A stretch of DNA of 64,000 nucleotides from Solirubrobacterales bacterium (GCA_035557635.1 DATMDR010000061.1:44730-108729), one strand, 5' to 3'. Positions 9,911 through 30,149 are shown, counted from the stretch's first letter. Notes: a model not told the origin generated them from the sequence alone. Numbers and translations: made by a program.

Positions 9911-10114
9911 TCAGACGCGATCGGGAGAGCGAAGCTCGGAAAGGTTGCCGCCCCAGCCAAGTCCCTCCGCTGCCAGCATCTCCTCGCTGCTAATCGACTC
10001 GCCGACAAGCCTGCGCAGGGCGAGATCGACGGCCTCGCGCTTGCTGCGCAATCGGTAGAGACGCATCGCATGATCCACCAACTCGTCGTCGATCTCGATA
10101 CTTGTCCTCGTCAT
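9911..10114 (-). CDS. VapB-family (DUF2191-like) type II antitoxin, no cognate toxin adjacent
   Basis: MTRTSIEIDDELVDHAMRLYRLRSKREAVDLALRRLV matches the VapB antitoxin N-terminal pattern. ATGA overlap with the stop of the upstream hydrolase fragment. Confidence 0.7.
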   Translation of the reverse strand: MTRTSIEIDDELVDHAMRLYRLRSKREAVDLALRRLVGESISSEEMLAAEGLGWGGNLSELRSPDRV

Positions 10115-10923
10115 GCGACCAGCCTAACTTCGAACGCTGGGACGAAGAGGGCGCCGGCGCCGTCCAAGAGGGCGAGGATGCGGCTGACGTATGCCTGCGT
10201 CTCGGGGTAGTCGGGAACGCAGTCGCAAGCTTCGACCGGCGCCGGGCCGGCATTGTAGGCGGCAAGGGCTAGGGAGGGGTCGCCGAACTGGCGCAGCAGG
10301 TCTGACATGAGATGCGCTTGGGCGTCGATCGCTTCGACGGGGTCGAAGGGGTCGAGCAGGCCGTAGGCGGCCGCCGTCGAGGGCATGAACTGGGCGATCC
10401 CCTGAGCACCGGCCGGGGAACCCGCGTTGGGATCGAAGTTCGACTCGGCCATCAACTGGCCGGCGAGCAGGGCGGCGGAGACGTTCCAGCGGGTCGCGGC
10501 GCGCAGCAGCGGCGCCCGGTACTGGACTGGGACGAACGATGGAAGGCCTCCGCTACCTGAGAGCGCGCCGTCTCCCCCACCGCCCGTCACTACGGAGTTG
10601 CCTGCGGCTGAGCAGGGCGCCGGCCCGGCGTCGAACCCATAGTGCCAAGCCTCCCAGGAGTAACGCTGGACGAAGCCGAAGCGGCCGGCGTTGGTCGCGA
10701 GCCAGCCGTAGGCCGTTTCGGGGCCGAGGTCGAGCTCGGTGGCGCAGCGGTGCAGCGATTGGCCCGGCGGTGCGACCCAGCGCGGGTCGGGGTTGGCGGC
10801 GAAGAGCGCCGCCTGCTCGGCGTCGGAGCGGAAGCCGGAACTGACGAGGAGCGTGAGGCCTTCGGACGCCGCGGCAGCCGCCATCCGGTCGAAGGCGGCG
10901 GCGACGTCCGGCCTCATCCCCTC
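10111..10923 (-). pseudogene. 3' portion of a split gene: VanY/M15 D,D-carboxypeptidase domain plus SLT lytic transglycosylase domain
   Basis: VanY-like motifs (SGFRSDAEQAALF, LHRCATELDL). SLT-like motifs (AESNFDPNAGSPAGAQGIAQFMP, AAYNAG). No signal peptide. The frame is closed by a stop only 3 codons upstream of the first Met (10927-10929), at the element junction. Confidence 0.75.
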
Positions 10924-10950
10924 GCCCTACCGTTATTTGTTTACCCCCAT
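10915..10950. other. attL-like junction of the integrated element
   Basis: Host coding frame ends at CTC (10921-10923). The element arm GCCCTACCGTTATTTGTTTACCCCC follows. It mirrors the arm at the other end (see findings). Confidence 0.6.
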
Positions 10951-11108
10951 CCGTGTCAGCAGCCCTTCGCCTCAAAAGGACGGCTAGATCGCTGCCACGG
11001 CCAACTCCGGTCTCTGGGCCGGTAGTGCTTCGAGTAGCGCGCTAACGCAGTTCGCACTCCCTAAAAGCTCATCGCTGCCTTTGCCGACTGAGCCGCATAG
11101 CCTTCTTT

Positions 11109-11345
11109 CTAATGAGGAGTGCTGAAGAACTCCACTACTACCCGGATCGTGCCTTCCAAGCCACTGCCTGGTTCACGGTTTCTGATGGCAAGCATCAAAG
11201 CGACGCTGAGCCCTCCGACAATCACGAGAATAGTGCCAAGAGAGACAGACCCAAATGCAAGCTGCCAAATTCCAGCTCCCCATAGGGACAGGCAAGCTAG
11301 GCAGACAGCCAAGAAACCGACCCAGCGCCAGACTCGCCGCGTCAT
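11109..11345 (-). CDS. small membrane protein (2 TM)
   Basis: 78 aa with helices WVGFLAVCLACLSLWGAGIW and LGTILVIVGGLSVALMLAI. 3-nt gap from the upstream gene. Last gene of the RHS operon. Confidence 0.55.
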   Translation of the reverse strand: MTRRVWRWVGFLAVCLACLSLWGAGIWQLAFGSVSLGTILVIVGGLSVALMLAIRNREPGSGLEGTIRVVVEFFSTPH

Positions 11346-11348
11346 CAG

Positions 11349-12068
11349 TTATCCGACAGCGAGCTGACTTCCAAACGGAGGAGGCCTTCGGTCGATTTGC
11401 ACCCCAAAGTCCCAGAACTCAGTTCCCGACCACAGTACGGTCGTGCTCTGCTCCTGATAAGAGACTTCATAGCTCACTCGGCGGACTCTACCTTGATCAT
11501 CAATCCAGGTGAGTACCTGGATTGAGGCGCTTAGACCTCCTAGCCCATCATCCGCATACGGTGCAATCTCGCTCCATGCAGACCCTTGAAACTGACCTGG
11601 ATAAAGCACTGACTGATAGCAAGAAGTAGCGCTTCCACGAATCAATACATCATGCTCTGGCAATCGAGACATATCGTCTACCGAAGCTAGGGGTCCAAAT
11701 ATAAAAAGCGGATTTCTGGTGGGCCGGAGATCGGACACCTCTCCACTTTGCTCACCCCATTCTCCGTCCTTACCCAAAAGCCATTGGGCTCCCCCCTCGA
11801 AGTAGAGTTCTTGTCCACTCCCAACGATTCGGTCCGCGAGCCCGTATAGAAGTCGATAGACCGGGCGGGTCAGCTTAGAGCTGTCCTTCGCACGGTCGTT
11901 GACCATTCGCCTCGAAAACAGGCGATCATGCATCCAAATCCGATCCTGGTCGAAGTCAACGAGGCCTTCGCCTCTTCTATCTATTGGCTCCGGCACTGGA
12001 TTGCCTATGCGCGCGAACACAGACAACTGAGCACTCGCGGCGCTCAGCGTCTCATCAACCACACGCAA
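11349..12068 (-). CDS. hypothetical protein immediately downstream of the RHS toxin (candidate immunity protein)
   Basis: 239 aa, no signal peptide or TM helix. Starts 52 nt after the RHS stop on the same strand. Function assigned from position only. Confidence 0.5.
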   Translation of the reverse strand: MRVVDETLSAASAQLSVFARIGNPVPEPIDRRGEGLVDFDQDRIWMHDRLFSRRMVNDRAKDSSKLTRPVYRLLYGLADRIVGSGQELYFEGGAQWLLGKDGEWGEQSGEVSDLRPTRNPLFIFGPLASVDDMSRLPEHDVLIRGSATSCYQSVLYPGQFQGSAWSEIAPYADDGLGGLSASIQVLTWIDDQGRVRRVSYEVSYQEQSTTVLWSGTEFWDFGVQIDRRPPPFGSQLAVG

Positions 12069-12120
12069 AGGATCAGGATTTGGCAGTGCACTCCCTTCTC
12101 AGGCTAGCCAGATGCATATG

Positions 12121-15100
12121 CTAGCGGCTCACTGGTAGAACTGGCGTTTCTTCCAGCTGAGCCCTTACTCGATTAAGTAGATCCTTGAGGCTTGGACTTC
12201 GGTGTGGCTGTGCCGCCGTGGGCGGTGGATTCGGTGGAGGCGGCGACATCGTTGGGCCGTTGCCAGTAATGCAGCTGAAACCACACACGGCAAGGTCCCA
12301 CAGATTACAGAAATCAGCAAAGCATGAACCAAGTGAAACGATACCTTTACTCGCAGCGAGGCAGTGCTGAATCTTTGTGTACTTCATCGCTACGTTGCGT
12401 GCAGTGCAATGCCTTCTAATGCAAGTCCTGAGACACTGCACAATGCCTTCCCTCGGCCTAGTCGAGCATCCCGTTAGATCGAGCTGGTTTAGCGGATCTT
12501 GGTTCGCATAATCATATGAATTGGCCGAACCGCCCAAGACCCGATCAAGCGATGTAAAGCGACCCATCGCTGGAACATAGGTTCGAACGCCCATTTGAAC
12601 TATCCCCGAAGCAAACTCCGTCCGTCGCTGATGACTCCCGAGCCAACCATATCTTTTGGCTTCGCCTTTCGGTTTGCCGAACTCGTCGGACTCAAAGGTT
12701 GCTAGCAGTTTGGTGGCTTCTGGATCGAGGCTAGCCGTCGCAACGATGTCGCCATGCATGTTTGCCAACTGAAGAATCGTGCCCTGAGCGCTATCGTGCA
12801 GTGCCACCAGTTCTCCCCCAATTCCACTGATGGTGCGCGACCAGTTTGACCCCTGATCGATCCAAACTGGAGCGTCGGTACTGTTGGCGTAGTGATATAT
12901 TTCGGTACCCGATTTGGTGCCTGTTTGGACCCGTTGACGCTGTCGCAGGGATGCGTCGAGGTCGTAGGTGTTGGTGATTCCGTCCTGGGTCTGGCTGCGG
13001 ATCAGGTCGCTGCTGTAGTAGGTCGAGGTCAGCGTTCCCCCGCCTGAAAAGGCTTTGGGGAGCGTCGTGATCCTGCCGAAGTCGTCGTAGGCGATTTCAG
13101 TGCCGAGCAGGCGGTCTCCGGTGTCGTATTTGTATTCTTGGACGTTGCCTTTCGAGCTGATGTCGCAGGCGCCTTCAATGCCAGGTTCCCGCGTGATGAG
13201 AGCGGTGCGATTGGAGTTGGCATCGTAGTTGTAGGTGCGGGTCGTACACGAGCCGCCCTGCGGAGTGTCCTTGACCAGAGTGAGGCGACCTGCTTTGTCA
13301 TAGGAATATTGCTGAGAAGACAAGGCCGAGGTTTGACTGAGCCACTGCCCATGAATCGACCTCTCAACCTCGAAGTCGAGCCATGTACATTCGGAGACGC
13401 AATTCGTCGTCTTCTCGTAGGCTAGGTGGACGGACGCACCAGTCTCGTCGTAAGTGGTGGTTGCCGTGAGGCCGTTCGGGAAGTCCCGTTCGACCAAGTT
13501 GCCGTCGGCGTCATAGGTCGCGGTGAAGGTTCCTGCTGCGGAATCGTTCAGCTGCACGAGCAGGCCCGAGGTCGGGTCATAGGTGCGGGTCTGCACGCCC
13601 TTGCCATCGCTGGATATCACCGGGCGACTGAGCAAGTCATAGCCGGTGCTCGAGAGATTGCCGTCGGCGTCTTCGTAGCTGATCGGTCGCCCGAGCGTGT
13701 CGTAGACGGTCCTCGTCGCCTGGCGGTCGTAGCTGCTGGAGAGAACCCACTTCTGGATCCGGTCGTTGCCGGCGTCTGAGACCCAGACGTTGCCTGCTGA
13801 ATCAGCCGCGAGCCCTGATGGCCAGGTCAGGCTGAACTGGCCCTGGCCTGAGCCTGGCGCGCCGAACTTGGCGACGTATTTCCCCTCGGTGTCGAACTGC
13901 TGGACGCGACCGTTGCTCGCATCTAGGACCCAGACATTGCCTTTGGAGACCTCGACCGCATCCGGATTGATGAATTTGCCGTCGGTGTTGCCGTTGGAGC
14001 CGAACTGGAAAAGGAATTTGCCGGTCGCAGAGAAAACGCTGACGCGGTGTTTGGTCCAATCGGCGACCCAGACCTTGCCCTCGCCAACGTCAAGGCCAGC
14101 GGACTCGCCGAACTGGCCTTCGCCGGAGCCGGAGGAACCGACTGCTTTGATGAAGTTGCCTTCGGCGTCGAACTCCTGCACGCGGCCGCTGTAGTCGCTG
14201 ACCCAGAGCTCACCCTGGGCGTCGATCCCGATGCTCCTCGGCCCGTAGCCCGAGAATTTGCCATCGGTCGAGCCTAGGGAGCCGAATTCGTCTAGGTATT
14301 CTCCTTTGGTGTTGAACTTCTGGACACGGTGATTGCCCCTGTCGGCGACCCAGAGATCGCCGTTGGCATCGATCGCGATGTCCATCGGGTCACTGAGTTT
14401 GCCTTTGGCAGTCCCCAGGCCGCCGAACTCGAAGACGTAGTTCCCTGAGGAGTCGAGCTTCTGGACCCGGTTGTTGAGCCGGTCGACCACCCAGAGGTTG
14501 CCCTGGCCGTCGAAGGCGCTGCCGGCGGGATGGTTGAATTCTTTTTTGCCGGTGCCCGAGGAGCCGTAGGTGGCCGAGTAGTCGATGCTGGTTTTGCATT
14601 CGCTTTCGCAGACGAAGCGCTGGGTGGTCGGGCGGCCGGTGGCGGAGCCGTAGAGAGTCTCCGTCGTCGGGACCGCGACCCCGCCGCCTAGGCGTTTGAC
14701 CATCAGCGTCCGACCCGCTTCGTCGTAGGTCGTGATCGTCTTACGGGTCTTGGCGGGATCAGAGGTACCGCCGGGGCTTTCGATCACTTCGGTTGGCTGA
14801 CCAAGAGGGGAATAGGAGGCGTAATACGTCACTAGGAGGTCGGGTTGGCCTGCTGTTCCCGGTTGAGCCGCAGGCTTGACTTCGCAAGGCAGGCCCGTAA
14901 ACGCCGGTTTGGCATAGCACCGCGCTGGCCCCAGTGGATCATGGCCGTAGTAGACAGTCCGAGTCGATCGTGCATCCCCGCCGTTGGGATTTGCAGGCAA
15001 CCGTCTTTCGATTGGCAATCGACTCGTGTTGAAGGGGAGATACTCGATATGAGTTCGTAGTTTGAGTCCTTCCGGCTCAACTATTGTGTCGATTGGCAGA

Positions 15101-18100
15101 CGCAGGGTCCAGTTGTATTTCGTTTCCTTGACACGCTGATCTGCGTCTTTTCCTTCGCCTTTAACGCTTGCGCCAATGGTTTCCCGGGTTGGCAGATGAT
15201 ACTGAGGCGTCCCGGCAGGAGGAGGCGGTGCATTTTCGTCATCGTCATAGTTAATAGTGCGATGCCTTCGCGCCGGAACGACGGCGCCTGATTCCTCCAG
15301 GCGAGTAAGGTGCAACGGCCCCCATTCCTCGCGCAACTCGATGCCATCCGCAGAGAAGAGACGTTTAGTGTCGAGTTCTTCTGAGCGCGTGACCGATTTA
15401 GGGCCTTCCGCTAGGGCGCGTAGGCGGTTTTGAGGGCTGAGTTCACGTACGGTATTACCGTATTCGTCTGTTTCTGCTGTGGTAATTGATGGCCCCGAAG
15501 TTCCAGCGCCGGTTTCCGTGGCGGTATTGACCAGCAGACCTTCAGCATCCATGTAAAAGACGGTCGCGCGGGAGAAGCTACTGGGCGGATTTGCCGGAAC
15601 CTGATCGGGCGGAAACACGGCAGTTGCATCGACAGGAATGTCTTTCTGTCCCCATTTCGCGATGTCGGCAGCGCCCATTTCGTAGGGCGCACCGCTGCCG
15701 CTGATCGGTACCCCGTAGACGACGGTTGTCTGCGCGATGGATGGACTGCTGAGGAGGCTCGGTCGTTTGACGCTCACCAGGCGGCCATTTGCTTTCTCGC
15801 CGTCGTGGGAGCCGTATTCAAACGTCCACGGCTCCTCCCCCGGCGGCGTGATCGATTTGAGCTGCCCTGCTGCCTCGTAGGAGTAGGTCTCTTTAAGCGT
15901 TGGCGAGATCCGAGGGTCCCAAGCTTCGATGAGCCTGCCTTCTGAGTTGTATTTGTAGTTGGCTACCTGCCAGCTTTTCATCGCTGGGGTCGCACCGCTG
16001 CCAACAGCGGCGTGATATGTGATGGAGGCGAGGCGATCCCCGTAAGCTGCGGGGGCCCCCCAATTCGTCGCCGGTGCGTATTGGAACGTAAGCGTGCGAC
16101 ATCCAGGCATTACCGGGGCTTCTTTTTCCGTACATTCGTACGTCGAAGGCCCGATCACCATGATTAGCCGCCGGTTGCTGCCTTCGATTTTGTAAACCAT
16201 CCGCGTATTGTTGGCGCCGCTCCCTGTTTGAGAGACAGAGACTGGCAGATATTCAGTGCCACCGGAACTGTTTTCAAAGATCGTGCGGTTGCCATCGGGG
16301 TCAGTGAGAAAGAACTGATTTTCTTTCTTAGTCAGAAGCCAGCCGGACGCTTCGGGCGGGGAAATATAGCCGCCAGATCCATTTTGTTCGAATGCGTACT
16401 CGTCGCCGTTGAGATGGGTTAGCACAACATAGTTTTCAAGTCCTTCTATTTTTTCTTCTTCCGATACCACAATTTCACGCGCATGTCGCCATTCAGCCCC
16501 TCCTGCCGCTTCGACTGGAATGCCAGATTTCCAGCCACGGCCTAGCAGCCCGGTATCCGATGTTCCGGGATCGCGTGAGTTGTGAGTGCGAGAAAATTCC
16601 AGCGCAGTCTCAAAAACAGGAATTGAAATATCCGTCCTGCTAATGGAAAAATTTCCAGTAAGTAGATTGACAGAACCTGGGCCAACTGAGGCTGCGGCAT
16701 CCTGCGTACCACCCAAGTCGCGGTCAACTTTAGCTTCGACGGGAACGGTGTAGCCGGCAGCTGCGCCAGCACCATCCAATATCGCTCTGACCTGGATCGG
16801 GCCGCCAACTTTTTCAAGCGAGCTAGTTACGTGCGCCGCATCAAAGAAAAGCGGTGGGGTTTTCTGGCTAGCAACAACGGGAAGTGGCCATTTTTTGAGT
16901 TCTTCTCCCTGTGAATCCCGAACCAGACTAATCGGAACCGTTTGGAAGGGGCCTGTTTTCCCCTCCCTAAACTGATAGGTGACACCTGTCACGCCTGTTT
17001 CGGTCCAAGCAGCTTGGAGCTTGAGACGTCGCGCGGTCTGAGTCCCATCAGTTGGAGAAGTGACTTTGCTGGAGCTAGGAGCTTTGTCGTAATAGATAAC
17101 TTCCATGCGGGGCCGCTTGCTGGTGTCGACCGCAGCACTGGAATCGAAAGTCAGCGAGCGTTCTTTGCAAGCCGGCGAGCATTCGAGTTTCGTATCGTCG
17201 AGGAGCTTCAGCATCAAGCCCTGGTTGGGGAATAGAAGGCCGTTAACCCAGTTATCGACTAGGCTCGTCAGCCCAGGCCCGGAGAATTCCCACCAGCCCG
17301 CCTGGCCGCCGCGATCTTTGGTCAGTATCTGCGCGCCTTCGGAGGTGTAGTCGCCGCCGATCAGAGTCCACTTGAAGAGACTGCTGTACCTGTTCCAAAT
17401 CAACGTACTTTCCCAATTCTTTGTTGCCCGGCGGAGCTCGACTCCTTCCGTGTTGACGGCTGTAGCCGGCGCATGGACTTTGACCGCCGCCGCCATTATG
17501 TAGGGCTTTTTGCCGACGCCGTTGAGCGCGCTTAGATCGAACTTCAAGAGAGAGCGTGCCCATTCGTTGACGCCACTTGCCTGACGGTAGCGGGCATATA
17601 GTGCTTTTTGCCCGCCTGGACCACAGAGGCCCCAACCGTTTTTCCCTTCGAACTGTCCGGGGGGTACCCCGGGCGTTTTCGTGCCGCCAAAAGTGCAGTC
17701 GAGACTCGGGCTGTTGAGTTCGAGTGGGGGGTCGAGATGGATCGGCCAAGTCAGGTCTTCGCGCTTGAACCAGTCACCGTCGGCGTCGACCGTCAGTTCC
17801 CAGCTCTGCTCATCTACAGGCTGGAGTTCGTAATAGACGTCACGCGACACGCTCGGCTCGGGCGAGCTGTCGAGCAGCACTGGCGCTGGAATCGTGGCGA
17901 GCGACCGGTCGCTTGTGTCCCGGAACTCGATCGATCCGTCCTCGAGGAGCTTCGGGCTCAGGCCTTCCGACATCTCCAGGGCGAAGCGAAAGACGCGCGG
18001 CTCGGAGGGATCGGCGAGAACGATGTCCTCCTTGAACCCGTTGGCGAGGCTCGTCAGCTCGAACCGGGTGCCGCCGTCGGCGGTTTCGTAGCTCGCAGTG

Positions 18101-18564: not shown

Positions 18565-18578
18565 GAAATGGCTGATGC

Positions 18579-18887
18579 CTAGTTACTTAGGCCTGACAGA
18601 GCAGAAGCTGTGAAGAAACAGAGTTTCTCCCCGGCTCCACGGATTGGACGAACCTCAACCACCTCTAGGACACCTTGATCGCACAGAGTCTTCAGGTGAT
18701 AAGAGATGGCTGAGCTGGTGACCTTTTCATCTAGGACCTGCTCCAGCTGGATAGCTGACACCGGCTGTCCAATCCTTGTGATGGCTTCGAGCACTGCCAG
18801 CTTGGTTGGGCTGATCGCATGAGCCGTGAGCGCACTCCAATCCAAGCGGTTGCTCTGGCTGTGGTGACTGGTCACGTTTGGAGACAT
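18579..18887 (-). CDS. ArsR/SmtB-like winged-helix transcription regulator
   Basis: LAVLEAI...SAIQLEQVL...SSAISYHLKTLCDQGVLEVV wHTH pattern. Ends 14 nt upstream of the RHS start. Confidence 0.7.
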   Translation of the reverse strand: MSPNVTSHHSQSNRLDWSALTAHAISPTKLAVLEAITRIGQPVSAIQLEQVLDEKVTSSAISYHLKTLCDQGVLEVVEVRPIRGAGEKLCFFTASALSGLSN

Positions 18888-19074
18888 AGATCGAGTTGAC
18901 TGTGCCTCCGACGCGGGTGGTGCTGACGATATCCACCCGCATCGGAGACTTGAGAGCAGAACCGCTGCCCATTTTGGGGCTGGTCAAACGGTTATCTGAT
19001 CCTTAGTGATGGAAACTTTCACACCGAAGCGACCCTGTCAATCGTCACTTTTTAAGTGCGCGAAATATGTTCGC

Positions 19075-20929: not shown

Positions 20930-23900
20930 TTAGCGGCCGATCCCCAGGTCCCGGCCGAGATCGCGCGCTCTCCCGGCGTGCTGCCCAAGGCCGAGCATGC
21001 GCTGGGTCTCTAGAAGCCGCCGCCGCGTCGCCTCTTGGCGCGCTCGCTCGGCTCCCTGCTTCGCCTCCGCGCCAAACGCTCGGAACGGGTCCTTGATGCC
21101 GTGATCCTGGCGGTAGCGCTCGATCTGCGAGAGGCCGCGATCCCAAGCCTCCCGTTTGACCGGATCGCTCGGCCTCTCCCCCAGCTCGGCCTTCACGTAG
21201 GCGGGTGGGGATATCCGCGCCGCGACGATCGCCAGCTCGCGGCGCTGCGCGAGAACCTGATTGGCGACCGCCAGCTCGCGGCGCGCGGCCCGTCCCGACT
21301 CAGGCAGCTCGCGAATCTCGGCGTCGCGACGCGCGAGCGCATCGCGCCAGTTCTTCTCCAAGGAGTCGATACGTGCCAGCTCCTCGCGGCGCTGGCGACG
21401 CGGCAGCCCCTGCGCCGCCTCGCGCTCGACCTGGATCTGGTCGAGCCGCTTCCGCGCTTCCTCAAACCGCTTCTGCACCATGCGGCGCTGGCTTTCTGCG
21501 TTGGCCTCTCGTCCTGCCGCCACCAGTAGCTCACCGCGCCTTGCGACCAGCTCCTCGGTCGGCAGGCCCGAGAACTTCGAGCGCAGCGCCTCGTCGTGGG
21601 CGGCGACCTGGGCGCGGTCGCGCTCGGCGGCTTCGGCGATGTGCGGGATGCCCTCGCGCAGGTAGGGAGACTCCGGCGCGATCTCCTCGCGGTGGACCTG
21701 TATCTCCGGCGTGGCGTAGATGAACGTCTCCTCGCGGGTGCGCGAGGCGGCGACGTATAGCTCCTGCTTGTCCATCGAAGGGTCGGCGGCGACGAATGCA
21801 CGATCGACGCTCGTGCCCTGTGCCGAGTAGGTGGTGACGGCGTAGGCGTGTTCGAGCGCCGGGGCTTCTGAGTGGCGGTTGGTCTGAGCGAGATAGTCGG
21901 CTCCGACCTCGACCCGCTTTGCCTGGTCGATGCCGTCGAGGGTCATGCGGCGCTCTGCCGCGTCCACCTCGGCAATCCGCCAGCGCTCGCGGTTGAAGAT
22001 CTCGGCGCTGCGGTCGTTGACGCGGGTGATGACGAGATCGCCGGCGGCGAAGCTCGCCTCCCCCACTTCGATCTCCTGGGCTCCGAGCTGCCCGGCCTGG
22101 CGGCGAACCTCGCGCGCCATCTCGTTCAAGCGCCTGACCTCGGCGTTCTGCTTGGCGACCATTACCGCGTCCTCGCCGCGCTCGAACGCCTCGTGCCAGT
22201 CGCGGACCATCGCCTCGCGGCGCTCCTCGGCGTTCGGGGCGACCGTGACCCTCTCGGATGAGCGGTAGAGGCTCAGCGCTTCGCCACCCTCGCCTTCCCT
22301 GATCTGCTTCGCCGCCACGCGGTCGAGCTCGTGGCGGTGGCGGATTACCTCGTCCAGTTGGATCGGGTCGGTGCGCTCGGCAAGAGCGCGGAACAGGCCG
22401 CCCGCTTCGATCTCGCCGAGCTGCTCGGGGTCGCCGACCAGGACGAGCTTCGCCTGGGCTCGCTCGGCGTGGGAGACGAGTCGAGCGAGGGTGGCCGAGT
22501 CCACCATCCCGGCCTCGTCGACCAGGAGGACCGAGCCGTGCGGCAAGCCCTCTTTGCCTTCATGCTCGGCGCGGTCGAGCGCCAAGAGCAGGCTGGCGAT
22601 GCTCGACGCCGGCAGTCCCTCCGCGCGCATCACGTTCGCCGCCCGCCAGGTCGGCGCGGCGGCGCGCAGCTCGATCCCGGCTTCGGCCCAGCCCTCAGCC
22701 GCGGCGACGACGGCGAAGGTCTTGCCGCTGCCCGCCTCGCCGATCACCACGGCGATCCCTTCGGGGTTGATGAGGAGGCGGCGGACCATCTCGCGCTGGT
22801 CGTCCTTCAAGGTCGGGCGTGTGTGAATGACACGGGCCGCGATCAGCTCGCCCGCAGGCGTCGGTCCCTGCGCCCGCATTCGCTCGACCGCCGCCAGCGC
22901 TTCGCGCTCAAGCTCCCAGATGCGCCGGGTGGTGAAGCGGGGGCCTTTGGCAGCCTCGGCGATCTGGATCACCGACTCCGACGCGAGGAAGGCGTCGGCC
23001 AGGCGCTCCACCTCGGCTCCCGGCGCACCGGATGGAAGCGAGTCGGCAACCGCCTGGATCGCGTCTCGCCTGTCGAAGTGGGACGCAGCCGCCGTGACCG
23101 CACGGTCTACCTGCTGGGTAGAGACCGTGCGGCTCACGGCGGCGCTCGGCCTCAGCGCTGCCTCCGGGTCGAAGGTGCGCTCGATCGTCTCGCGGTCAAG
23201 GCCGATCTCATCCGCCCGCGAGCGCCAGCGCCCAAGCAGCTCACCCCGGCTGACGTCTCGCTCCTTCGGCTGGCGCGTGGCAAGCGCGGCGACCTGCATC
23301 GAGCGCGCCGAGGCGTCGGCACCCGCCGCCTCGAGTATTTCCGCGCGACGGGTGGAGAAGGCGCGCAGATGCTCGTCGGCGAAGCCCGCGATCTCGGCGA
23401 TGCCCTTGCGCGTCGGTTGCCACTCGACGCCGAGGCGGCGGGTCAGCTCATGGCGCAAGTGCGCCTCGTAGATGTAGCTGGCGGTCTTGGCGTGGTCGTA
23501 GATCGCCGGGTGGTAGAGGCGGGTCCAGCGCCCGTCCGGTCCCCTAGTCGCGTTGGCGATCAGGACGTGGGTGTGGAGCTGTGGGTCGCCGTTCCGCGAG
23601 GAGCGGTGGACGTAGCCGGCGGCGAGGTAGCCATTGCCCTTGACGAACTCCGAGCCTCCCGCCCCACGCCTCGTCCAGCACGCCTCGCGCTGCATGTAGT
23701 CGAGGGCGGCTCCTACCGCTTCGCGGTGGGCGGCATTGACCTCGATGGCGGCGACCGGTCCGCCCAGGCCCCAGAGCAGGGAGACCGACTTAGGAGCCGA
23801 GAAGGTGAGATCGAAGCCGGGGACCGAGCCGTTGGCGGGGACGCCGCGCATCCCGACCAAGGGCTCGCCGTCGACCGGGCTGCGCCCGGTCAGCATCGCT

Positions 23901-24070
23901 TCGAGCTGGGCCGCCTCGACCTCCCCAGAGAGACCCAGATCCTCGGCGGCGTCGCCGAGCCATTGCCCGGCGACCTCGCCCTCGCCGGAGTAGTAGTCCT
24001 CAGCGCCTTCGGCGACCTTGTCGAGGTAGTAGCGCTCCTGGCCTTTGCCGAGCTTGCCGATGGAAAGCAT
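20930..24070 (-). CDS. MobF/TrwC-type conjugative relaxase fused to a RecD/TraA-like helicase
   Basis: N-terminus MLSIGKLGKGQERYYLD (catalytic Tyr region). His triad GDPQLHTHVLIAN. Helicase Walker A GEAGSGKT and LLVDEAGM. Start taken at ATG 24070; the track ORF extends to 24118. Confidence 0.9.
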   Translation of the reverse strand: MLSIGKLGKGQERYYLDKVAEGAEDYYSGEGEVAGQWLGDAAEDLGLSGEVEAAQLEAMLTGRSPVDGEPLVGMRGVPANGSVPGFDLTFSAPKSVSLLWGLGGPVAAIEVNAAHREAVGAALDYMQREACWTRRGAGGSEFVKGNGYLAAGYVHRSSRNGDPQLHTHVLIANATRGPDGRWTRLYHPAIYDHAKTASYIYEAHLRHELTRRLGVEWQPTRKGIAEIAGFADEHLRAFSTRRAEILEAAGADASARSMQVAALATRQPKERDVSRGELLGRWRSRADEIGLDRETIERTFDPEAALRPSAAVSRTVSTQQVDRAVTAAASHFDRRDAIQAVADSLPSGAPGAEVERLADAFLASESVIQIAEAAKGPRFTTRRIWELEREALAAVERMRAQGPTPAGELIAARVIHTRPTLKDDQREMVRRLLINPEGIAVVIGEAGSGKTFAVVAAAEGWAEAGIELRAAAPTWRAANVMRAEGLPASSIASLLLALDRAEHEGKEGLPHGSVLLVDEAGMVDSATLARLVSHAERAQAKLVLVGDPEQLGEIEAGGLFRALAERTDPIQLDEVIRHRHELDRVAAKQIREGEGGEALSLYRSSERVTVAPNAEERREAMVRDWHEAFERGEDAVMVAKQNAEVRRLNEMAREVRRQAGQLGAQEIEVGEASFAAGDLVITRVNDRSAEIFNRERWRIAEVDAAERRMTLDGIDQAKRVEVGADYLAQTNRHSEAPALEHAYAVTTYSAQGTSVDRAFVAADPSMDKQELYVAASRTREETFIYATPEIQVHREEIAPESPYLREGIPHIAEAAERDRAQVAAHDEALRSKFSGLPTEELVARRGELLVAAGREANAESQRRMVQKRFEEARKRLDQIQVEREAAQGLPRRQRREELARIDSLEKNWRDALARRDAEIRELPESGRAARRELAVANQVLAQRRELAIVAARISPPAYVKAELGERPSDPVKREAWDRGLSQIERYRQDHGIKDPFRAFGAEAKQGAERARQEATRRRLLETQRMLGLGQHAGRARDLGRDLGIGR

Positions 24071-24717
24071 CACCCTCTCTGTCCAGCGGGAGCGCGTTTT
24101 GCCTCGCACACTTAACAAAGTGATAGGGCGTGAGGGTGGTTGCTGTTGGCTGTTGGTACCGGGGCTGGAGCTTTCTCAGGGCTGCTTCTGCTGCCCCTGA
24201 GAACTGGGCTTCCTGCCTGATTCCTTCCTTTGTCTTTGTGGTTTGGCTTTGGCTGGCTGGTTGATTGGCTGCGTTTGGCTGGTTGAGTTCATCAGCCTGG
24301 GGAGGCCGACTTCGCAAAGTCCGGCGCTGGGGGGAGAGAAGCGCCGCCAGCCGGGCTAGCCTTTTTCTATGACCACCATGAAGGTGGTTAGTTAGGAGGA
24401 ATTTGGACACTTCACGATGGAAGACCAGAGAGGCATAAGAGACCATGACCGGCCACGCAAGCGAATGGCTTGCGGTGGGCCTGACCCCTTTCGTTCTCGC
24501 CGGGGCCGTGATGGCTGCGCTGTGCTTGATCGCACTTCTGCGGCGCACCCCATTCGAGGGCGAGCTTCGGGTCTTCTGGCTCCTTTGCCTAAAGCTGCGA
24601 ACGCAGCCGCCGAGGGACGACGCCTGAAGGTGTCGTTAATCTCGGGTCCGCCAGCGAAGCTGGCTGAGGATCTCATCTCTAGCGCTTGCCGGATGCCCTA
24701 GATCGGCCTGGCAGGTA

Positions 24718-24756
24718 GTCGCGCAGAGGGCTGCCGCCCTGGCAGCCCTCTGCGAC
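24718..24756. other. strong GC-rich hairpin in the relaxase/NTase intergenic region
   Basis: CGCAGAGGGCTGCC (24722-24735), loop GCCCT, GGCAGCCCTCTGCG (24741-24754): a perfect 14-bp stem. Confidence 0.6.
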
Positions 24757-25077
24757 TCGTTCTCTGGACGTAGGAAAACCCCGGGGCGTTGAGGCGACCT
24801 GCGCCGACACGATCTCGGAATCCGAAGTCGAGCACGGGATGGGCGGCACAGCGGCCTCCGTCCCTCGCTGCCCGAAGGTCCGTCAACAGCGATCTATAGA
24901 ACTCCGGGCGTCGTCCTCGTATCGCTTGTGGGCCGGGCGGGGGGTTCATCGCCTCCGTCCGGCCTCAAAGTACCCGCCGACGGGCTTGCAATCATCGTCT
25001 CGAGCCGATTGGGGGGGTGATGTCTCCTGAGAAGACCGGCTCGCCGATATGAGGCCGATTAAGAAAGCAGGTTCTAA

Positions 25078-26142
25078 ATGTTTCAGGAGGCGAAGGCCGA
25101 AAAGGCCAGCGATGTAGAAGCAGTTCTCGACGAAGTCCGCATCGAGATCTCCGCCAACGACGATGATCTCCGAGAGACGCGGAAGCGCCGTGATCTCGTC
25201 CGCGACGCTGCCGAATCGTTCGTGGGGGTTCTCCGGACCTTCAACTCGGGATCGGTCGCACACGGGACCGCCAACAACCCGGTCGACGACGCGGACGGGG
25301 GAGCCGTCCTCAACCGCGTCTCTTACCCCGATCTCGGTCCCGATAGCGACGAGGAAGGCGGCCCCGACGACCTGATGCGGGAGATGCGCGACCACGTCAT
25401 GGCGATCGTCCGGAAGGACTACCCGAAGGCCCGCAGTCGGCTGACGAAGAGGGCGATCCTGATCGAGTTCCACAAGCCGAACTCGGACGGCGTCGATCCA
25501 TCGGTCGACCTCGTTGTCGCGCTGACGCGGAAGGACGCTGTCGGCCTCTGGATCCCGAACCGGGACCGCGACGAATGGAACGCCTCCCACCCGGAGGAGC
25601 ACACCCGGCTCCTGGTCGCGAAGCCGAAGGGCCTCCGCGTTCTCCGCGCCCGGGTTATCCGCCTGTCGAAGGCCGCGATAAAGAAGGACTCGACTCCGGC
25701 GCTGATCTCGTTCAACGTCGAGGCCCTCGCCCTCAAGATCGTCGACGACGAGAACGAAGGGCTCGCCGAGGCGCTCCAGCGCTTCTTCGATGTCGCGGCG
25801 GACGAGATCAAGGCCCGCTATACGGAAGACCCGGCCGGGGTCTCGGGGAGAATCAAACTCCCCGAAGGGATGACCCGGTCCCGCTCCTCCCGGCGGCTTC
25901 GCTTCTTCGCCGACAAGGTCCAAGAGGCGATCGACGCCGAGTCTCGGGAGGACGCCGAAGCCGCGCTCGCTGAGCTGTACCCGGACGAGTTGCCGGGCAC
26001 CCCGAAGTCGAGCAAGAAGAGCCTCGCCGAGGCGCTCAACGCCGGAGACGAGAAGCGCGTCCGGACTGCGGCCTCGGTCGCACCGGCCGCAGCGTTCAAG
26101 CCTGGGATGAGGTCCCACGGCGATGACCCGGACGCGGCGTAA
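25078..26142 (+). CDS. Pol-beta superfamily nucleotidyltransferase, CD-NTase/SMODS-like
   Basis: G58-S59 (FNSGSVAHGT), D71-x-D73 (PVDDADGG), D144 (PSVDLVVAL), then W..SHPEEH and RVIRLSK helices. Low-complexity tail of about 50 aa. Confidence 0.7.
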   Translation: MFQEAKAEKASDVEAVLDEVRIEISANDDDLRETRKRRDLVRDAAESFVGVLRTFNSGSVAHGTANNPVDDADGGAVLNRVSYPDLGPDSDEEGGPDDLMREMRDHVMAIVRKDYPKARSRLTKRAILIEFHKPNSDGVDPSVDLVVALTRKDAVGLWIPNRDRDEWNASHPEEHTRLLVAKPKGLRVLRARVIRLSKAAIKKDSTPALISFNVEALALKIVDDENEGLAEALQRFFDVAADEIKARYTEDPAGVSGRIKLPEGMTRSRSSRRLRFFADKVQEAIDAESREDAEAALAELYPDELPGTPKSSKKSLAEALNAGDEKRVRTAASVAPAAAFKPGMRSHGDDPDAA

Positions 26143-26599
26143 ACCGCCCTGGTACCAGCACTTTCCGACGCGGCTTCGCTTCGAGCGCGAGGCCCGGGCC
26201 GCCTACCCCCACATCTCTATGCGAGAGGTAGGCGCTCGGAAGCGCTCGGAGGTCGCCTATGGGTTGAAGATCCCGGTCCCTGAGTACGAGGACCGGAGCA
26301 TCGAACTCGTGTTCCCCCGGATGATCGCGAGGCCGGAATTCACCCGCGTCTACGCCGACGGGCCGACCGAATCCCCGCATCGGTACCGGGCGAGCGAGCG
26401 GGATAAGCAGGGGCGATCCTCGCTCTGTATCTGGGATCCCGACGATCCACCGGAACTTCGCTGGGTCCCGGAGGACGGTCTCCTCTCGCTGATCGAGATG
26501 ACCCGGCTCCACCTCTTCAAGGAGGCGTACTGGCGGGAGACCGGCGACTGGCCGGGCGCGGAGGCCCCGCACCCAACGGCGGAGCCAAAGCCTTGCTGA
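26123..26599 (+). CDS. stand-alone E2/UBC-like protein (putative catalytic Cys102)
   Basis: 20-nt overlap with the NTase gene. Its order of elements mimics the UBC fold: N-terminal helix (RLRFEREARAAYP), beta-strands (VAYGLKIPVP..RSIELVFP), SPHRY flap (HPN-like), SSLCIWDP (Cys, TGT 26426-26428), then W and the helix LLSLIEMTRLHLFKE. Confidence 0.6.
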   Translation: MTRTRRKPPWYQHFPTRLRFEREARAAYPHISMREVGARKRSEVAYGLKIPVPEYEDRSIELVFPRMIARPEFTRVYADGPTESPHRYRASERDKQGRSSLCIWDPDDPPELRWVPEDGLLSLIEMTRLHLFKEAYWRETGDWPGAEAPHPTAEPKPC

Positions 26600-27174
26600 C
26601 CGCTGTCGCCCATGCCGCCTCGGAGGGGGGCGGCGAAGGTTTGAAGGTTGTCCTCCCTCTGATCGGTTCGGCGATCGCCCTCGTCGGGGTTCTCATCACC
26701 CTCTACGTCAATGGCCGCCGGGCCGAGCGAACTCGTCGGCGGGACCTCTACTCCGCGGGTTGGGCCGCAGTCCAGGCGTACAAGGAGTTCGCCTTCGCGG
26801 TTCGGCGCCGGAACTCGGAGGATCGTGCCGGGGAGCGGGTCCGCATCTCGACGGCGATGGGTGAGGTCCAGAAGGAACTCGCCTACTACGAGGCGATGAT
26901 CGGGCAGGAGCGCGTGAGTGAGTTCATCGCCGCGGTAACTGGCCGGGATCTCCGCGGTGCTGTCGCCGACGCCTACCTGACCCTCGTCGCCGAGACTCGG
27001 AAGGTCGCCGGGGGGATCATCAAACTTTCCTGGAACGAGGAGCCGATCGGAGCGGACAGCGAAATGCACGCCCCCGAGATCGCTCAGGAGCTGGCGGTGC
27101 TCAAGCCGGTCGAGATGGCCTTCCTCGACACGGTCTCCGACGACGTCGGCGGGCGTCGGCCGGACGCCGGTTAG
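26593..27174 (+). CDS. single-pass membrane protein of unknown function (candidate effector)
   Basis: TTG start overlaps the E2 gene by 7 nt (alternative TTG near 26641 after GGAGGGGGG). TM helix VVLPLIGSAIALVGVLITLYV, then about 150 aa of charged helical sequence. Confidence 0.6.
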   Translation: MLTAVAHAASEGGGEGLKVVLPLIGSAIALVGVLITLYVNGRRAERTRRRDLYSAGWAAVQAYKEFAFAVRRRNSEDRAGERVRISTAMGEVQKELAYYEAMIGQERVSEFIAAVTGRDLRGAVADAYLTLVAETRKVAGGIIKLSWNEEPIGADSEMHAPEIAQELAVLKPVEMAFLDTVSDDVGGRRPDAG

Positions 27175-27448
27175 GTCCGACCCCGAGAGCGACGTAATGA
27201 TCGACTGAGCCGGGGCTAGTTCAACCCCTCGGCCCAAGAGGGTCATCGTGCACTTCGCGCCCGGTTTGCCGACAGGTATTGCTGCAAACAAATAACAGTG
27301 GGGGGACGTGCCCGACGCGGACAAATGAGCGGGGGGCGATAACCGGGCTTTCCTGACTTATTTCGATGCAATGCGCGGTTTTCGCGGACAAGGGGATTGA
27401 GGAACATGACCCTGAAATCCCCGGCATCCGCCGCAAACCCGCCTATCA

Positions 27449-27554
27449 CCCGGGCAGTGAGCCCGGCCATACCTGGCGGCAGATGCTCAAGCCCGAGCAA
27501 AGATGCCCGGGCAGAGCTTTCTCGCCCGGGCTATCGTAAGAGCGACGCCCGGGC
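27449..27554. promoter_or_regulatory. cluster of four CCCGGGC palindrome-containing sites upstream of the RHH/recombinase genes
   Basis: CCCGGGC at 27449-55, 27506-12, 27525-31 and 27548-54. Confidence 0.4.
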
Positions 27555-27699
27555 TTACCTGGGCCGAGATGCCGGGGCTCTTTCCAATGCAAGCGCCTGG
27601 CCGGCCGCCCCCCTACGGCCCCCCACAAGGGGGCGCACCCCGGCGCAGGGCTGCGCCCTCTTCACAAGCGCGGCGGACTGCTCTAGAACCGGGAGCTAG

Positions 27700-27966
27700 A
27701 TGCCCGCCGAGAGCCCAAAGCCGACCGCAGCATTCGCAAACCCTTGCATCGAGATCACGCCAACGCCGAAGCAGTACGAACGGCTCTGCCTCGATCTCAG
27801 GAAGCTTCGCGAGCGTGGCGCGACCTCCAACACCGACGCGATCCTCGCCGCCGTTCGAGATGCCGCCGCCCGCCGTAAGATGCCTGGCGACAAAGCAAAA
27901 GCCGGGCGGCGCGGTAACGCCCCCGGCACGGCACCAGGAGGTTCCCCTGATGCAAGAGCAGCGTAG
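27700..27966 (+). CDS. small putative ribbon-helix-helix protein (regulator/RDF candidate)
   Basis: GGGAG sits 6 nt upstream of the ATG. CIEITPTPKQYERL (strand) plus helices LRKLRERG...AILAAVRDAA. Overlaps the recombinase start by 17 nt. Confidence 0.45.
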   Translation: MPAESPKPTAAFANPCIEITPTPKQYERLCLDLRKLRERGATSNTDAILAAVRDAAARRKMPGDKAKAGRRGNAPGTAPGGSPDARAA

Positions 27967-29572
27967 CCAGCAGGCCGTTATCTACGCAGCGAAGTCCACC
28001 GAGGACAAGCACGGCAGCATCCCCGATCAGCTCGTCAAGAACCGGCGACTGGCCGACAGAGAAGACTGGTCAGTAGCCGACGAATTTTCGGACGAGGGTT
28101 TCTCCGCCTACAGCGGCAATCGAGGGCCGGGCTTGGAGGAAGCCAAGGCGCTCGCAATTGAACTCGCCGAGCTACACGGCGAGTGCTTTCTTGTCGCTCT
28201 TCACAGCGACCGGGTTGCCCGTGGAGCTGGCGACGCTCCCGGCGCCGCCGATCATCTTGTTGAGGTCGTCGCCCACTTGCGCCGCCACGGCGTGCGGCTC
28301 CGTACGGTCGAGGACGACTTCTTTGCCGACGATCGCATCGGGCTTCTCATGGCCGCAGTCCAGGGACAGCGCAACAGCGAGGACAGTCGTCGCAAGTCCG
28401 AGTCGGTTAGAGCTGGAATGAAGCGACGCGCAGAGCGCGGCTTGTTCAGCGGCCCGGCTCCTTATGGATATGACTACGCGAGCGACGGTAGCGGCCTGGT
28501 GATCGTAGATGCCGAGGCCATCGTGGTACGTCGAATCTTCACGGAGTATGTCGCGGGGCGCAGCCTGTCTGGAATCGCAGTCGGCTTGCACCGCGACGGA
28601 GTCAAGACCAAGAAAGGCTCCCTCTGGCGACAGTCAACGGTCTCAGGCATCGTTCGGAATCACGCCTACATCGGCAAGGTGACTTACCAGCGCGAAGCTT
28701 TCGATGGAGTCCATGAGCCAATCATCGACTCCGAGCTTTGGGAGCAAGCATCGCAGCTCATCGCGGCCACTCCGACTAAGCGCGGCAGACCCCCGAAGCG
28801 GAAGCGCCACCTCTTCACGCACGGATTCCTCCGGTGCGGAACCTGCGGGGAGGCGATGGTCCCGCGTACCCGGCCGGAAAGCGGCTACGAGTTCTACGAA
28901 TGCAATGGGCGAAAGCTGCACGACTGCAAAGTCGGCGCAATCAGGAGAACCGACATAGACGAAGGAGTGCTCGCGCACTTCGAGCAAACGACGCTCGACC
29001 TTGAAGCTACGCGCGCGCAGATCGTCGCCGCTATGGATCGCAATGCGACCGAGGTCGAAGCCCTGCAAGTCGCCGCAGAGCAGGAGGCACAGAAGGCAGC
29101 AGCGCGCCTCGCCAAGGTGAAGCACGATTACACCCACGGCGATCTAACGGCTGCCGAGTGGCGCGAACTAAAGTCAGAGCTTGAGCCCGAAGCCGCCGCC
29201 GCCCAGGCCGAGGCAGATCGCCTGAAAGAGCAGGTTGCCGCCGTCAAATCAAGCGCTGCACTCGGCGATGCCGAATCCGAGGTTCTAGACCAGTTGGCGC
29301 AGCTCCGCGCCGCAGTTGCCGGGAAGGTATCGGCAGCAGACAGCATCGAAGCCGTCAGGGCCGTTCTGATGCGGCTCTTTGACCGATTCATTTTCCATTC
29401 CGAGCTTCCCGCAACTGCGCACGTCGAGCTAATCGGCTATCGCTATTGGATCGAGCCAGTGATGAGCGAGCGAGCCATCGCCGGCTACGACGAGAAGATG
29501 AAGCCGGTCCTAGCGCGCCAGCCGCTTGGGCAAGCCAAAAACAATTACGGCGTCGGCTCCCCGCCGCGGTAG
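27950..29572 (+). CDS. large serine recombinase (integrase)
   Basis: AGGAGG lies 8 nt upstream of ATG 27950. Resolvase catalytic domain AVIYAAKSTEDKHGSIPDQ. Recombinase domain, Cys-rich zinc-ribbon region (CGTCG...C..C) and coiled-coil C-terminus. The last 4-5 codons and the stop lie beyond the predicted crossover. Confidence 0.9.
   Translation: MQEQRSQQAVIYAAKSTEDKHGSIPDQLVKNRRLADREDWSVADEFSDEGFSAYSGNRGPGLEEAKALAIELAELHGECFLVALHSDRVARGAGDAPGAADHLVEVVAHLRRHGVRLRTVEDDFFADDRIGLLMAAVQGQRNSEDSRRKSESVRAGMKRRAERGLFSGPAPYGYDYASDGSGLVIVDAEAIVVRRIFTEYVAGRSLSGIAVGLHRDGVKTKKGSLWRQSTVSGIVRNHAYIGKVTYQREAFDGVHEPIIDSELWEQASQLIAATPTKRGRPPKRKRHLFTHGFLRCGTCGEAMVPRTRPESGYEFYECNGRKLHDCKVGAIRRTDIDEGVLAHFEQTTLDLEATRAQIVAAMDRNATEVEALQVAAEQEAQKAAARLAKVKHDYTHGDLTAAEWRELKSELEPEAAAAQAEADRLKEQVAAVKSSAALGDAESEVLDQLAQLRAAVAGKVSAADSIEAVRAVLMRLFDRFIFHSELPATAHVELIGYRYWIEPVMSERAIAGYDEKMKPVLARQPLGQAKNNYGVGSPPR
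29528..29565. other. attR-like junction of the integrated element
   Basis: Element arm CCAAAAACAATTACGGCGTCGG, then CTC (29557-29559), then the host coding sequence resumes (CCC GCC GCG GTA = G G R Y on the minus strand). Confidence 0.6.
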
Positions 29573-30117
29573 ACCAGCGGCCCGCTGTAGCCGCCCCCGC
29601 TCGCCATCTCCGGTACTGCCCCGGGCGCCGAAGCCGTGGCCGGCGCGGCGGCTTCAGCGACCGCCGAAGCTTCTATCTCGGTGCGGTCGTCACCTACGTC
29701 GAGACTGGCGACGATGAGCGCCCGAGCCCGCACCGGAGCGAAGGAGGAACGATCCGGAAAGTCGACCCGCAGCCGCGCCGGCGCGACGCCGTTCGCCTCC
29801 GCAGCCTCCCTCGCCGCGCCGCGCGCTCGCCACAGGTAGAAGGCCTTCGGCAGGTGACGCGGGTTCGGCAGGCCGTTGGGAAGGGTCGGCGGAGTGAGCA
29901 GGCGCGGCAGGTCGTCGCGCATCGAGCGTGCGGCCGAGATCGCAGCCAAATCTGCCGCCCGCTGCACCCGTCCCTTGCCGGTCACCGCGCCGGCGATGGC
30001 TACCAGCGCCAGCGCCCCGGCGAGCAGGACGAAGACGCCGCCCAAGACCAGCAGCAGCGCCTGCCCCTCCTCCCTGCGCGCGTCCATGCGCCCACCCTGC
30101 CCGGGGCGAGTGCACAT
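29557..30117 (-). pseudogene. 5' portion of the split gene: TadE/TadG-like N-terminal membrane anchor region
   Basis: EEGQALLLVLGGVFVLLAGALALVAIAG...RVQRAADLAAISAA matches the Flp-pilus TadE/G-like N-terminal pattern. The track ORF runs to 29545 through 4 element-derived codons (PTP then stop). Confidence 0.7.
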
Positions 30118-30149
30118 GTGGCGCGCTGAATCGACCTAAACAGTAAAAA

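Follow-up and report, generated by a model that had tools for sequence, protein, structure and literature searches.

An 18.6 kb segment interrupting a VanY/SLT hydrolase gene in a Solirubrobacterales bacterium is probably an integrative mobilizable element with its own serine recombinase

The split hydrolase gene and its intact orthologues

We analysed a 64,000-nucleotide stretch of DNA (hereafter, the window) from a Solirubrobacterales bacterium (GCA_035557635.1, DATMDR010000061.1:44730-108729). A segment of 18,636 bp at window positions 10924-29559, counted with one copy of the short overlap described below, separates two minus-strand open reading frames (ORFs). An initial annotation had taken these ORFs for the halves of one cell wall hydrolase gene split by an integrative mobilizable element (IME). 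Our results agree on the gene: ORF structure, Pfam domains and uninterrupted homologues identify the two ORFs as parts of a single coding sequence. The N-terminal fragment (29545-30087, minus strand) encodes a TadG-like membrane anchor and a linker, and the C-terminal fragment (10111-10920, minus strand) encodes a VanY (LAS metallopeptidase) domain and an SLT lytic transglycosylase domain. Both assignments are based on ORFs, Pfam and alignment, and that of the C-terminal fragment also on synteny.

The N-terminal fragment lies in a minus-strand ORF of 190 aa (29545-30117) that ends with ...GGGYSGPLVYRGGE, P-T-P and a stop. Homologues begin at M11 of this ORF, which places the true start of the split gene at the Met codon at 30087. 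From this codon, the fragment consists of 177 host residues followed by P-T-P and a stop codon (TAA) that are coded by the element. The ORF showed a match to the Pfam Tad domain (PF13400; 7.3e-6, 26.7 bits against a cutoff of 22.3). The C-terminal fragment has an in-frame ATG at 10917. The ORF starting there (10111-10917, minus strand) begins MRPDVAAAFDRM... and is directly preceded by stop-G-E-G, the frame reading stop-G-E-G-M and then MRPDVAAAFDRMAAAA.... It matched VanY (7e-14) and SLT (1e-19) and carries no export signal of its own. Because the anchor fragment is without both catalytic domains and the catalytic fragment is without an export signal, the integrated state most probably makes the split gene a null allele.

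The 456-aa fusion protein proposed in the initial annotation was used as a query against a database of 5.8 billion proteins. Its best matches were uninterrupted proteins of 442-452 aa (about 445 aa), the top one with 93% identity and 98% coverage (3.5e-263), and many further homologues showed 75-90% identity. All of the 120 best database homologues were full length and uninterrupted, and the homologues with a source name were all from Solirubrobacterales. Intact orthologues of about 445 aa and 91-93% identity have the sequence ...PLVYRGGEGMRPDV... where the two halves were predicted to join. This joint, ...YR(G/S/T)GEG(M/V)RPDV..., was gapless in ten of ten aligned sequences and contained several invariant residues. 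Judging from these alignments, the match of the fusion to uninterrupted orthologues cannot be attributed to chance. Compared with an intact orthologue, the ratios of non-synonymous to synonymous substitution rates (dN/dS) were 0.23 for the N-terminal half and 0.12 for the C-terminal half. At conserved columns, the window copy had four private substitutions, against 6-13 in the intact orthologues. The catalytic motifs are intact and neither half shows decay, which would fit a recent insertion.

Empty site and attachment sites

The intact gene and an empty insertion site were found in a related Solirubrobacterales genome. A 2.5 Mb contig of a metagenome-assembled genome (L001 in our numbering of loci) encodes one of the matches to the fusion (P0002), and its flanks are colinear with those of the window at 93-94% nucleotide identity. 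Positions 1-10531 of L001 correspond to window 41627-29557 and positions 10526-11341 to window 10926-10111, so that synteny breaks exactly at 10926 and 29557. The orthologues and this empty site contradict the possibility that the two ORFs are normally separate genes, and the proposed combination of TadG-like, VanY and SLT parts in one protein exists intact in a relative. The trinucleotide GAG on the gene strand (CTC on the plus strand) was the only sequence common to both junctions and the chromosomal attachment site (attB). Therefore, the deletion of 10924-29559, which had been predicted to fuse the halves in frame, is exact to the base, in agreement with the orthologues, the attB alignment and L001. 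The junction/attB alignment places the left copy of this 3-bp overlap at 10921-10923 (CTC on the plus strand, GAG on the gene strand) and the right copy at 29557-29559 (CTC/GAG). The crossover dinucleotide is likely TC/GA.

The reconstructed attB reads ...CGCGGCGGGGAGGGGATGAGG... and lies inside the codons ...Y-R-G-G-E|G-M... of the conserved gene. The attachment site of the element (attP) was reconstructed as ...GCCAAAAACAATTACGGCGTCGG-CTC-GCCCTACCGTTATTTGTTTACCCCC..., with a junction that can also be written ...TTACGGCGTCGGCTCGCCCTACCG.... Its P arm (GCCAAAAACAATTACGGCGTCGG; 29534-29556, plus strand) is the right end of the element and lies inside the 3′ end of the recombinase gene, where it encodes ..AKNNYGVG. 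Its P′ arm (GCCCTACCGTTATTTGTTTACCCCC...; 10924-10961, plus strand) is the left end and, in a circle, encodes the recombinase tail (S)PYRYLFTPIRV.... The attP is an imperfect dyad centred on TC with 13 of 24 positions matching, better with one indel, and has the pattern AAACAAWTA..GGC-TC-GCC..TAWTTGTTT. Large serine recombinases (LSRs) characteristically cross over at a non-palindromic 2-bp core within short dyad sites. The sites found here are of this kind, being short, with dyad symmetry and without long direct repeats.

The recombinase gene and the crossover within it

One end of the element carries an LSR gene, as the initial annotation had stated; hidden Markov model (HMM) searches, the database protein and relatives all identify the product, which has 540 aa in the integrated state (27950-29572, plus strand). 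The start at the ATG at 27950 is that of the window's own database protein. Close relatives have 538-547 aa, and a 689-aa ORF from the first ATG was rejected as over-extended. The protein contains Resolvase (PF00239, 1.5e-13), Recombinase (PF07508, 3.3e-21) and Zn_ribbon_recom (PF13408, 8.2e-10) domains, and its nucleophile, Ser16 in YAAKST, was invariant across 37 relatives. The start of the recombinase gene is overlapped by a conserved ORF of 88 aa (27700-27966, plus strand) with the motif NPCIEITPTPxQYExLCxDL..LR..GA.SNT.AIL. This ORF is conserved in three related elements (L029, L030 and L031) and is covered by the DNA homology to relatives, which begins at 27738, some 210 bp before the recombinase gene. 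The 88-aa ORF had no Pfam or PHROG match and is a candidate accessory or directionality factor.

The crossover lies within the recombinase ORF, 20 sense codons before the stop codon of the circle form, a feature absent from the initial annotation. In the integrated recombinase gene, host DNA supplies the stop codon (29570-29572) and the three sense codons between it and the crossover Ser; the protein finishes with (S)PPR, encoded on the strand opposite the host's Y-R-G-G codons. Such a host-read 3′ end was found in every relative examined. When the frame is continued from the right junction (29557-29572) into the left end of the element (10924-10990), the circle-form recombinase has 557 aa and ends with ...NNYGVGSPYRYLFTPIRVSSPSPQKDG; the circle form of L031 (left end at L031 2766-2830) ends with ...NNYAQASPYCYLFAPILVGG.... 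Integration exchanges this family-conserved 20-aa tail, ..(Y/F)LF(G/T/A)PI.V, for three host-coded residues. Among 120 relatives, 12 carried the motif [LMFI]F[GATD][PLR][IV]x[VA] within their final 30 aa, and the 62,528 positions scanned contained no further occurrence. A recombinase of 46% identity (L040) has an uninterrupted dyad, AAACAATTACGCCGATGGC-TT-GCCGTCGCAGTTTTTGTT, in the 3′ end of its gene (L040 2960-3032), colinear with the reconstructed attP. Because of the shared tail motif and the uninterrupted dyad in L040, the circle-form ORF looks like the native full-length gene. A search of the protein database with the circle-form C-terminus gave four fragments, none with the tail, and no attP-form ORF of the window recombinase's clade was present among the matches listed. 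A scan of viral contigs with the attP pattern yielded one match, which was discarded as a chance match in unrelated low-GC DNA.

The tail swap leaves the catalytic and DNA-binding domains untouched, and its effect, if any, would be modulatory. We tentatively raise the idea, which is doubtful, that an attP within the ORF serves as a built-in state sensor: the 557-aa and 540-aa isoforms may differ in activity, stability or partner binding, for instance with the product of the 88-aa ORF. If this were true, the circle would be biased to integration, and excision from the chromosome would be restrained or licensed. The arrangement would then be a bacterial serine-recombinase counterpart of the archaeal "suicidal" integrases and of integration-dependent immunity, and the split hydrolase gene could become conditionally restorable as a by-product.

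Other genes of the element

ORFs of the element were chosen by GC content at third codon positions (GC3) and searched with the HMM libraries Pfam, NCBIfam, PADLOC and PHROGs. The element encodes a MobF (TrwC/TraA-type) relaxase fused to an SF1B helicase (20930-24118, minus strand), which scored 5.1e-81 against the MobF model NF041492, above its cutoff, and 4e-83 against TrwC. It shows 85% nucleotide identity to the relaxase gene of an 8.8 kb relative (L031). None of the element ORFs matched a coupling protein or a type IV secretion system (T4SS) component of the VirB4, VirD4, FtsK/TraB or TcpA types in these four libraries, which supports the earlier description of a relaxase-bearing element without these functions. 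No phage capsid, terminase, portal or tail domain was found in any ORF, and PHROGs gave no match for the unassigned element ORFs. An ORF of 182 aa (24000-24548) that overlaps the relaxase start was treated as over-extended or spurious.

The largest cargo gene encodes a 2147-aa Rhs/YD-repeat and NHL-repeat protein (12121-18564, minus strand) with a Sec-type signal peptide and an Rhs-associated core. Its C-terminal domain of about 110 aa is Cys-rich and begins after DPLNQLDLTG. Just downstream of the Rhs gene is a 239-aa ORF (11349-12068, minus strand), a candidate immunity protein from its position. Neither the Rhs C-terminal domain nor this ORF matched a family in the HMM searches. On the minus strand, there are also genes for a 102-aa winged-helix (HTH_20) regulator identified by HMM (18579-18887), with homologous genes in L030 and L037, a 215-aa ArsR-type helix-turn-helix (HTH) protein identified by Pfam (19075-19722), and a 263-aa S-adenosylmethionine-dependent methyltransferase, regarded as cargo and identified by HMM (20066-20857).

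On the plus strand, the element encodes three proteins of a cyclic oligonucleotide-based antiphage signalling system (CBASS): a CD-NTase (oligonucleotide cyclase; 25078-26142; SMODS, PDLC00777 3.8e-99), an E2-like protein (26123-26599; PDLC00867 7.6e-35) and an effector with a single transmembrane segment (1TM; 26593-27174; PDLC00666 3.4e-18). With their overlapping ORFs on one strand, the three genes form a CD-NTase/E2/1TM operon. The 3.5 kb segment that contains them (24195-27748) has no counterpart in L031, an element that is similar in other respects. A copy of the element's left end lies in inverted orientation at 27267-27306 (minus strand; 40 nt, 75% complementary to 10922-10961), just behind the CBASS genes and before the recombinase module; no other inverted repeat within the element is as long. 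With up to five mismatches allowed, L029, L030, L031 and L037 contained nothing similar apart from the left end of L031 itself. Without a convincing dyad, the copy was rejected as a full second att site. In L033, two direct copies of the left-end repeat lie upstream of the recombinase gene. By homology, the cargo may serve competition and defence, with a secreted Rhs toxin and a probable immunity gene, a methyltransferase and CBASS. The element is mosaic in GC content: the lower GC stated in the initial annotation holds for 11-20 kb (53-62%; Rhs and regulators) and does not hold for the relaxase region, which is host-like (70-71%).

Related elements and target choice

Relatives were found mostly by exact-protein look-ups; a metagenome scan with the recombinase gave few loci. 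The recombinase has many relatives of 61-80% identity, and those with an organism name on the source contig were from Solirubrobacterales. As far as sampled, the element family is confined to this order. Insertions at the same codon of the orthologous gene were found in three other hosts, namely L029 (80% recombinase identity), L030 (78%) and L037/L038 (74%), the recombinase of the last being seen on 12 contigs. These insertions share a pst/ppk/epimerase neighbourhood, and each of the four interrupted genes, that of the window included, keeps an intact N-terminal half. The Rhs-HTH-TrwC-recombinase layout of the window element recurs in L030 and L037, which have no CBASS genes. The element of L029 (1-9995), at the same attB, encodes an AAA_10 (VirB4-like) ATPase and a TcpE-like protein. 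It is putatively conjugative and could represent a helper type for the IME family of the window.

Recombinases of 73-77% identity were found at a response-regulator gene (L031, L021) or elsewhere (L002). L031/L032 (77%), L021 and L022 have a common flank that differs from the hydrolase site. The L031 element (2766-11603; 8.8 kb) is fully delimited and contains only regulators, the MobF relaxase, the small ORF and the recombinase. Its target is a response-regulator receiver domain (..RYNHPD|LLLLDL..) whose halves rejoin in frame, the reconstructed attB encoding ...RYNHPDLLLLDLTLP...; a first guess that the target of this sister clade was a Fis-type regulator was replaced by this reconstruction. 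The recombinase of L002 (74%) occupies a third target site. A second site in the hydrolase gene family, the SLT motif GIAQFMP, is occupied by a 45%-identical recombinase (L006, 11596-11895); one end of this element was recovered, and there too the recombinase ORF continues past the junction. Insertion into the middle of genes, at conserved coding motifs, is thus a habit of the window recombinase's clade, and the hydrolase gene is the canonical site of one sub-clade.

The tails of the recombinases sort by target, with GSPxR/GSPCL (the antisense of Y-R-x-G-E) at the hydrolase site and ..SGWL at the response-regulator site. Inference of the target from the tail alone was abandoned: it holds for L029 and L030 and fails for L036 (48%), which has GSPSR and adjoins a PEP-mutase gene. 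L037 has the tail ..AWPWR, yet is inserted in the hydrolase gene. Target claims are limited here to directly verified loci. More distant recombinases of the family, of 56-61% identity, in L034 (10001-21668) and L033 (6636-7736) lie beside Druantia genes (DruA, and in L034 a large DEAD/MZB helicase), a further kind of defence cargo linked to the lineage.

Genomic neighbourhood and the Tad link

The hydrolase had been called a likely Tad-pilus-associated enzyme. The TadE/G-like N-terminal segment is present (PF13400), and Pfam searches found no tad core genes (TadA, TadB/C, CpaB/RcpC or prepilin peptidase) within 10 kb on either side in L001 or in the window to 47.5 kb. Within 10 kb of the site, L001 encodes CHAD, a glycosyltransferase, PPK, PhoU, PHO4, small membrane proteins, an epimerase, VapBC, a zincin-like protein and MaoC. 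The neighbours in the window add Ppx, PhoU and PstSCAB, making this a phosphate-metabolism neighbourhood. The sole neighbour hinting at Tad is a 118-aa upstream protein (window 33844-34200, minus strand; L001 7419-7775) beginning ...EEGTASVELIAVVPFLLL..., which resembles a TadE-type pseudopilin by eye and had no HMM match. The association with Tad pili is weak, and the enzyme is better described as having a TadG-like membrane anchor.

The surroundings of the target are a variable region. About 1.1 kb of the window (30137-31255), between the epimerase gene and the split gene, is absent from L001; it contains a 366-aa ORF (30150-31250, plus strand) with only a sub-threshold metallophosphoesterase match. 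A PIN-domain gene (32255-32878) is found in the window and not in L001, and at 7642-9396 the window carries a low-GC segment that differs from L001. L001 carries VapBC and a 452-aa zincin-like gene (L001 11415-13435) that are missing from the window.

Classification and alternative explanations

We consider with good confidence that the 18.6 kb segment is an integrative mobilizable element with its own serine recombinase, inserted in a conserved VanY/SLT hydrolase gene. It is bounded by att sites with an empty site in a relative, and it encodes its own recombinase. The IME label is reasonable because a MobF relaxase is present and no coupling protein or T4SS was found among its ORFs. As the junctions and the empty site indicate, the recombinase joined attP to the chromosomal attB in the gene for a membrane-anchored VanY/SLT peptidoglycan hydrolase. 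The insertion would separate the TadG-like anchor from both catalytic domains, and conservative excision would restore the gene exactly. By targeting a conserved coding motif, the element may gain a dependable landing site across species, and this target would reflect the habit of the element family rather than a switch evolved by the host. The putative transfer backbone consists of the small ORF with the recombinase, the MobF relaxase-helicase and the winged-helix regulators. After excision, the relaxase would nick a putative origin of transfer (oriT), and transfer would then proceed through the mating channel of a conjugative element present in the same cell.

Several points weigh against this interpretation. 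No excised circle, same-strain repaired attB or helper conjugative element was observed, so that mobility is deduced from intact parts, and an oriT was not located on the element. The window represents 64 kb of a larger genome, and a paralogue of the split gene or a T4SS may lie elsewhere. The GC mosaic and the inverted copy of the element's own end make a rearrangement impairing mobility possible. The absence of decay in the two halves, which fits a recent insertion, may fit selection for a restorable gene equally well. As for the recombinase tail, its motif was defined post hoc and overlaps the P′ arm of attP, so that part of its conservation may be at the DNA level. L033, however, encodes the tail motif with different synonymous codons, which argues for some protein-level conservation.

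The initial annotation had also suggested that the element acts as an excision-dependent genetic switch, in which the host or the element excises the island under certain conditions and the VanY/SLT hydrolase is made only then. Deletion of the element in silico restores the interrupted ORF precisely, the halves keep their catalytic motifs and signatures of purifying selection (dN/dS 0.12-0.23; 4 versus 6-13 private substitutions), and the N-terminal halves are intact in four of four insertion-carrying hosts. The recombinase also gave weak scores against XisF and Ccr models, and LSR-driven switches are well documented (PMC5025042). However, the suggestion had been drawn only from the in-frame rejoining of the halves, which follows automatically from conservative recombination and thus carries no information on regulation. 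The family targets unrelated genes: sister elements with the same backbone split the response-regulator gene and L002 has a third target, and the specificity for one gene or programme expected of a switch was not found. Since the same codon is used in three other hosts and the sister clade is inserted in an unrelated gene, target choice looks like a property of the element family and not of host regulation. Furthermore, the element retains a relaxase and selfish cargo, unlike domesticated intervening elements, and the 120 best homologues are without exception uninterrupted. Among the matches listed, there was neither an intact allele of more than 93% identity nor an attP-form ORF of the clade. 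No developmental programme is known for Solirubrobacterales. Regulated excision is possible but unsupported, and we judge a switch unlikely.

The segment could instead be a decayed or immobilised conjugative remnant, or a composite island, that no longer moves and has knocked out the gene for good. The lack of T4SS and coupling protein genes among the element ORFs would fit this, as would the VirB4-like (AAA_10) and TcpE-like genes of the relative at the same attB (L029), the mosaic GC content, and the 3.5 kb segment absent from L031, which holds CBASS and the inverted element end. However, L030, L031 and L037 share the design of a relaxase and a recombinase without a T4SS, which is therefore a stable architecture and not decay. 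Both att junctions are intact, and so are the recombinase and relaxase genes and the small ORF; decay of the split gene has not begun. An immobile remnant is therefore quite improbable. A prophage or a phage-like satellite with a phage serine integrase is hardly credible: LSRs are common phage integrases, and CBASS and toxin cargo occur on prophages, but the element has no structural domains and no PHROG match for its unassigned ORFs, and carries a MobF relaxase instead.

Comparison with known systems

Serine-recombinase IMEs are site-specific within genes, which they disrupt, rumA being an example (PMC5704250). The IMEs of this kind in Firmicutes, such as the streptococcal rumA IMEs and Tn4451/Tn4453 with TnpX and the Mob protein TnpZ, resemble the window element in having a single LSR at one end and their own relaxase (PMC5704250). 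They also share the absence of mating-pore genes, flanking repeats of 2-3 bp, a disrupted gene and adaptive cargo. The window element differs from them in its Actinomycetota host (Solirubrobacterales), its VanY/SLT target, its MobF-helicase relaxase, the position of attP inside the recombinase ORF, and a cargo of Rhs and CBASS genes instead of antibiotic resistance. According to a 2017 review, no canonical IME with MobF was known (PMC5704250).

The skin element (SpoIVCA) in sigK, SP-beta (SprA) in spsM and the fdxN element (XisF) are likewise LSR elements located mid-gene, the precise excision of which rebuilds the ORF. Their excision is tied to terminal differentiation and to a dedicated directionality factor, whereas the window element keeps horizontal-transfer functions and has relatives in unrelated genes.

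An attP inside an integrase gene has been described as exclusive to archaeal "suicidal" tyrosine integrases (PMC8371274), and integration-dependent immunity in mycobacteriophages is based on an attP that lies within the repressor gene (PMC4557955). In SSV1-type integrases and BPs-type phages, as in the window element, attP is located in a coding sequence and the protein differs between the free and integrated states. These systems use tyrosine recombinases, while the window element uses a serine recombinase. Integration of the SSV type splits and inactivates the integrase gene, and that of the BPs type cuts the repressor gene. In contrast to the SSV type, the bacterial recombinase of the window loses only its last 20 residues and keeps all catalytic and DNA-binding domains.

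The predicted cargo resembles that of defence and competition islands with CBASS and polymorphic Rhs genes: besides a CD-NTase/E2/1TM operon, there is an Rhs protein with a Sec signal and a variable C-terminal domain, and a small ORF comes after its gene. It differs in that neither the Rhs C-terminal domain nor this small ORF could be assigned to a family.

Implications

Gene disruption by itself is an already known behaviour of serine-recombinase IMEs, and the window element joins that class. Its relaxase type (MobF) is unusual for an IME, and its cargo consists of competition and defence genes. The position of attP inside the recombinase ORF offers a cheaply testable idea on directionality control. 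With attB and attP resolved to the base, and with recombinases of 61-80% identity at no fewer than three targets, the elements described here provide material for studying how LSR target specificity evolves. They document that the serine-recombinase IMEs of Solirubrobacterales, an under-studied and uncultured order of actinobacteria that is dominant in soil, form a coherent family.

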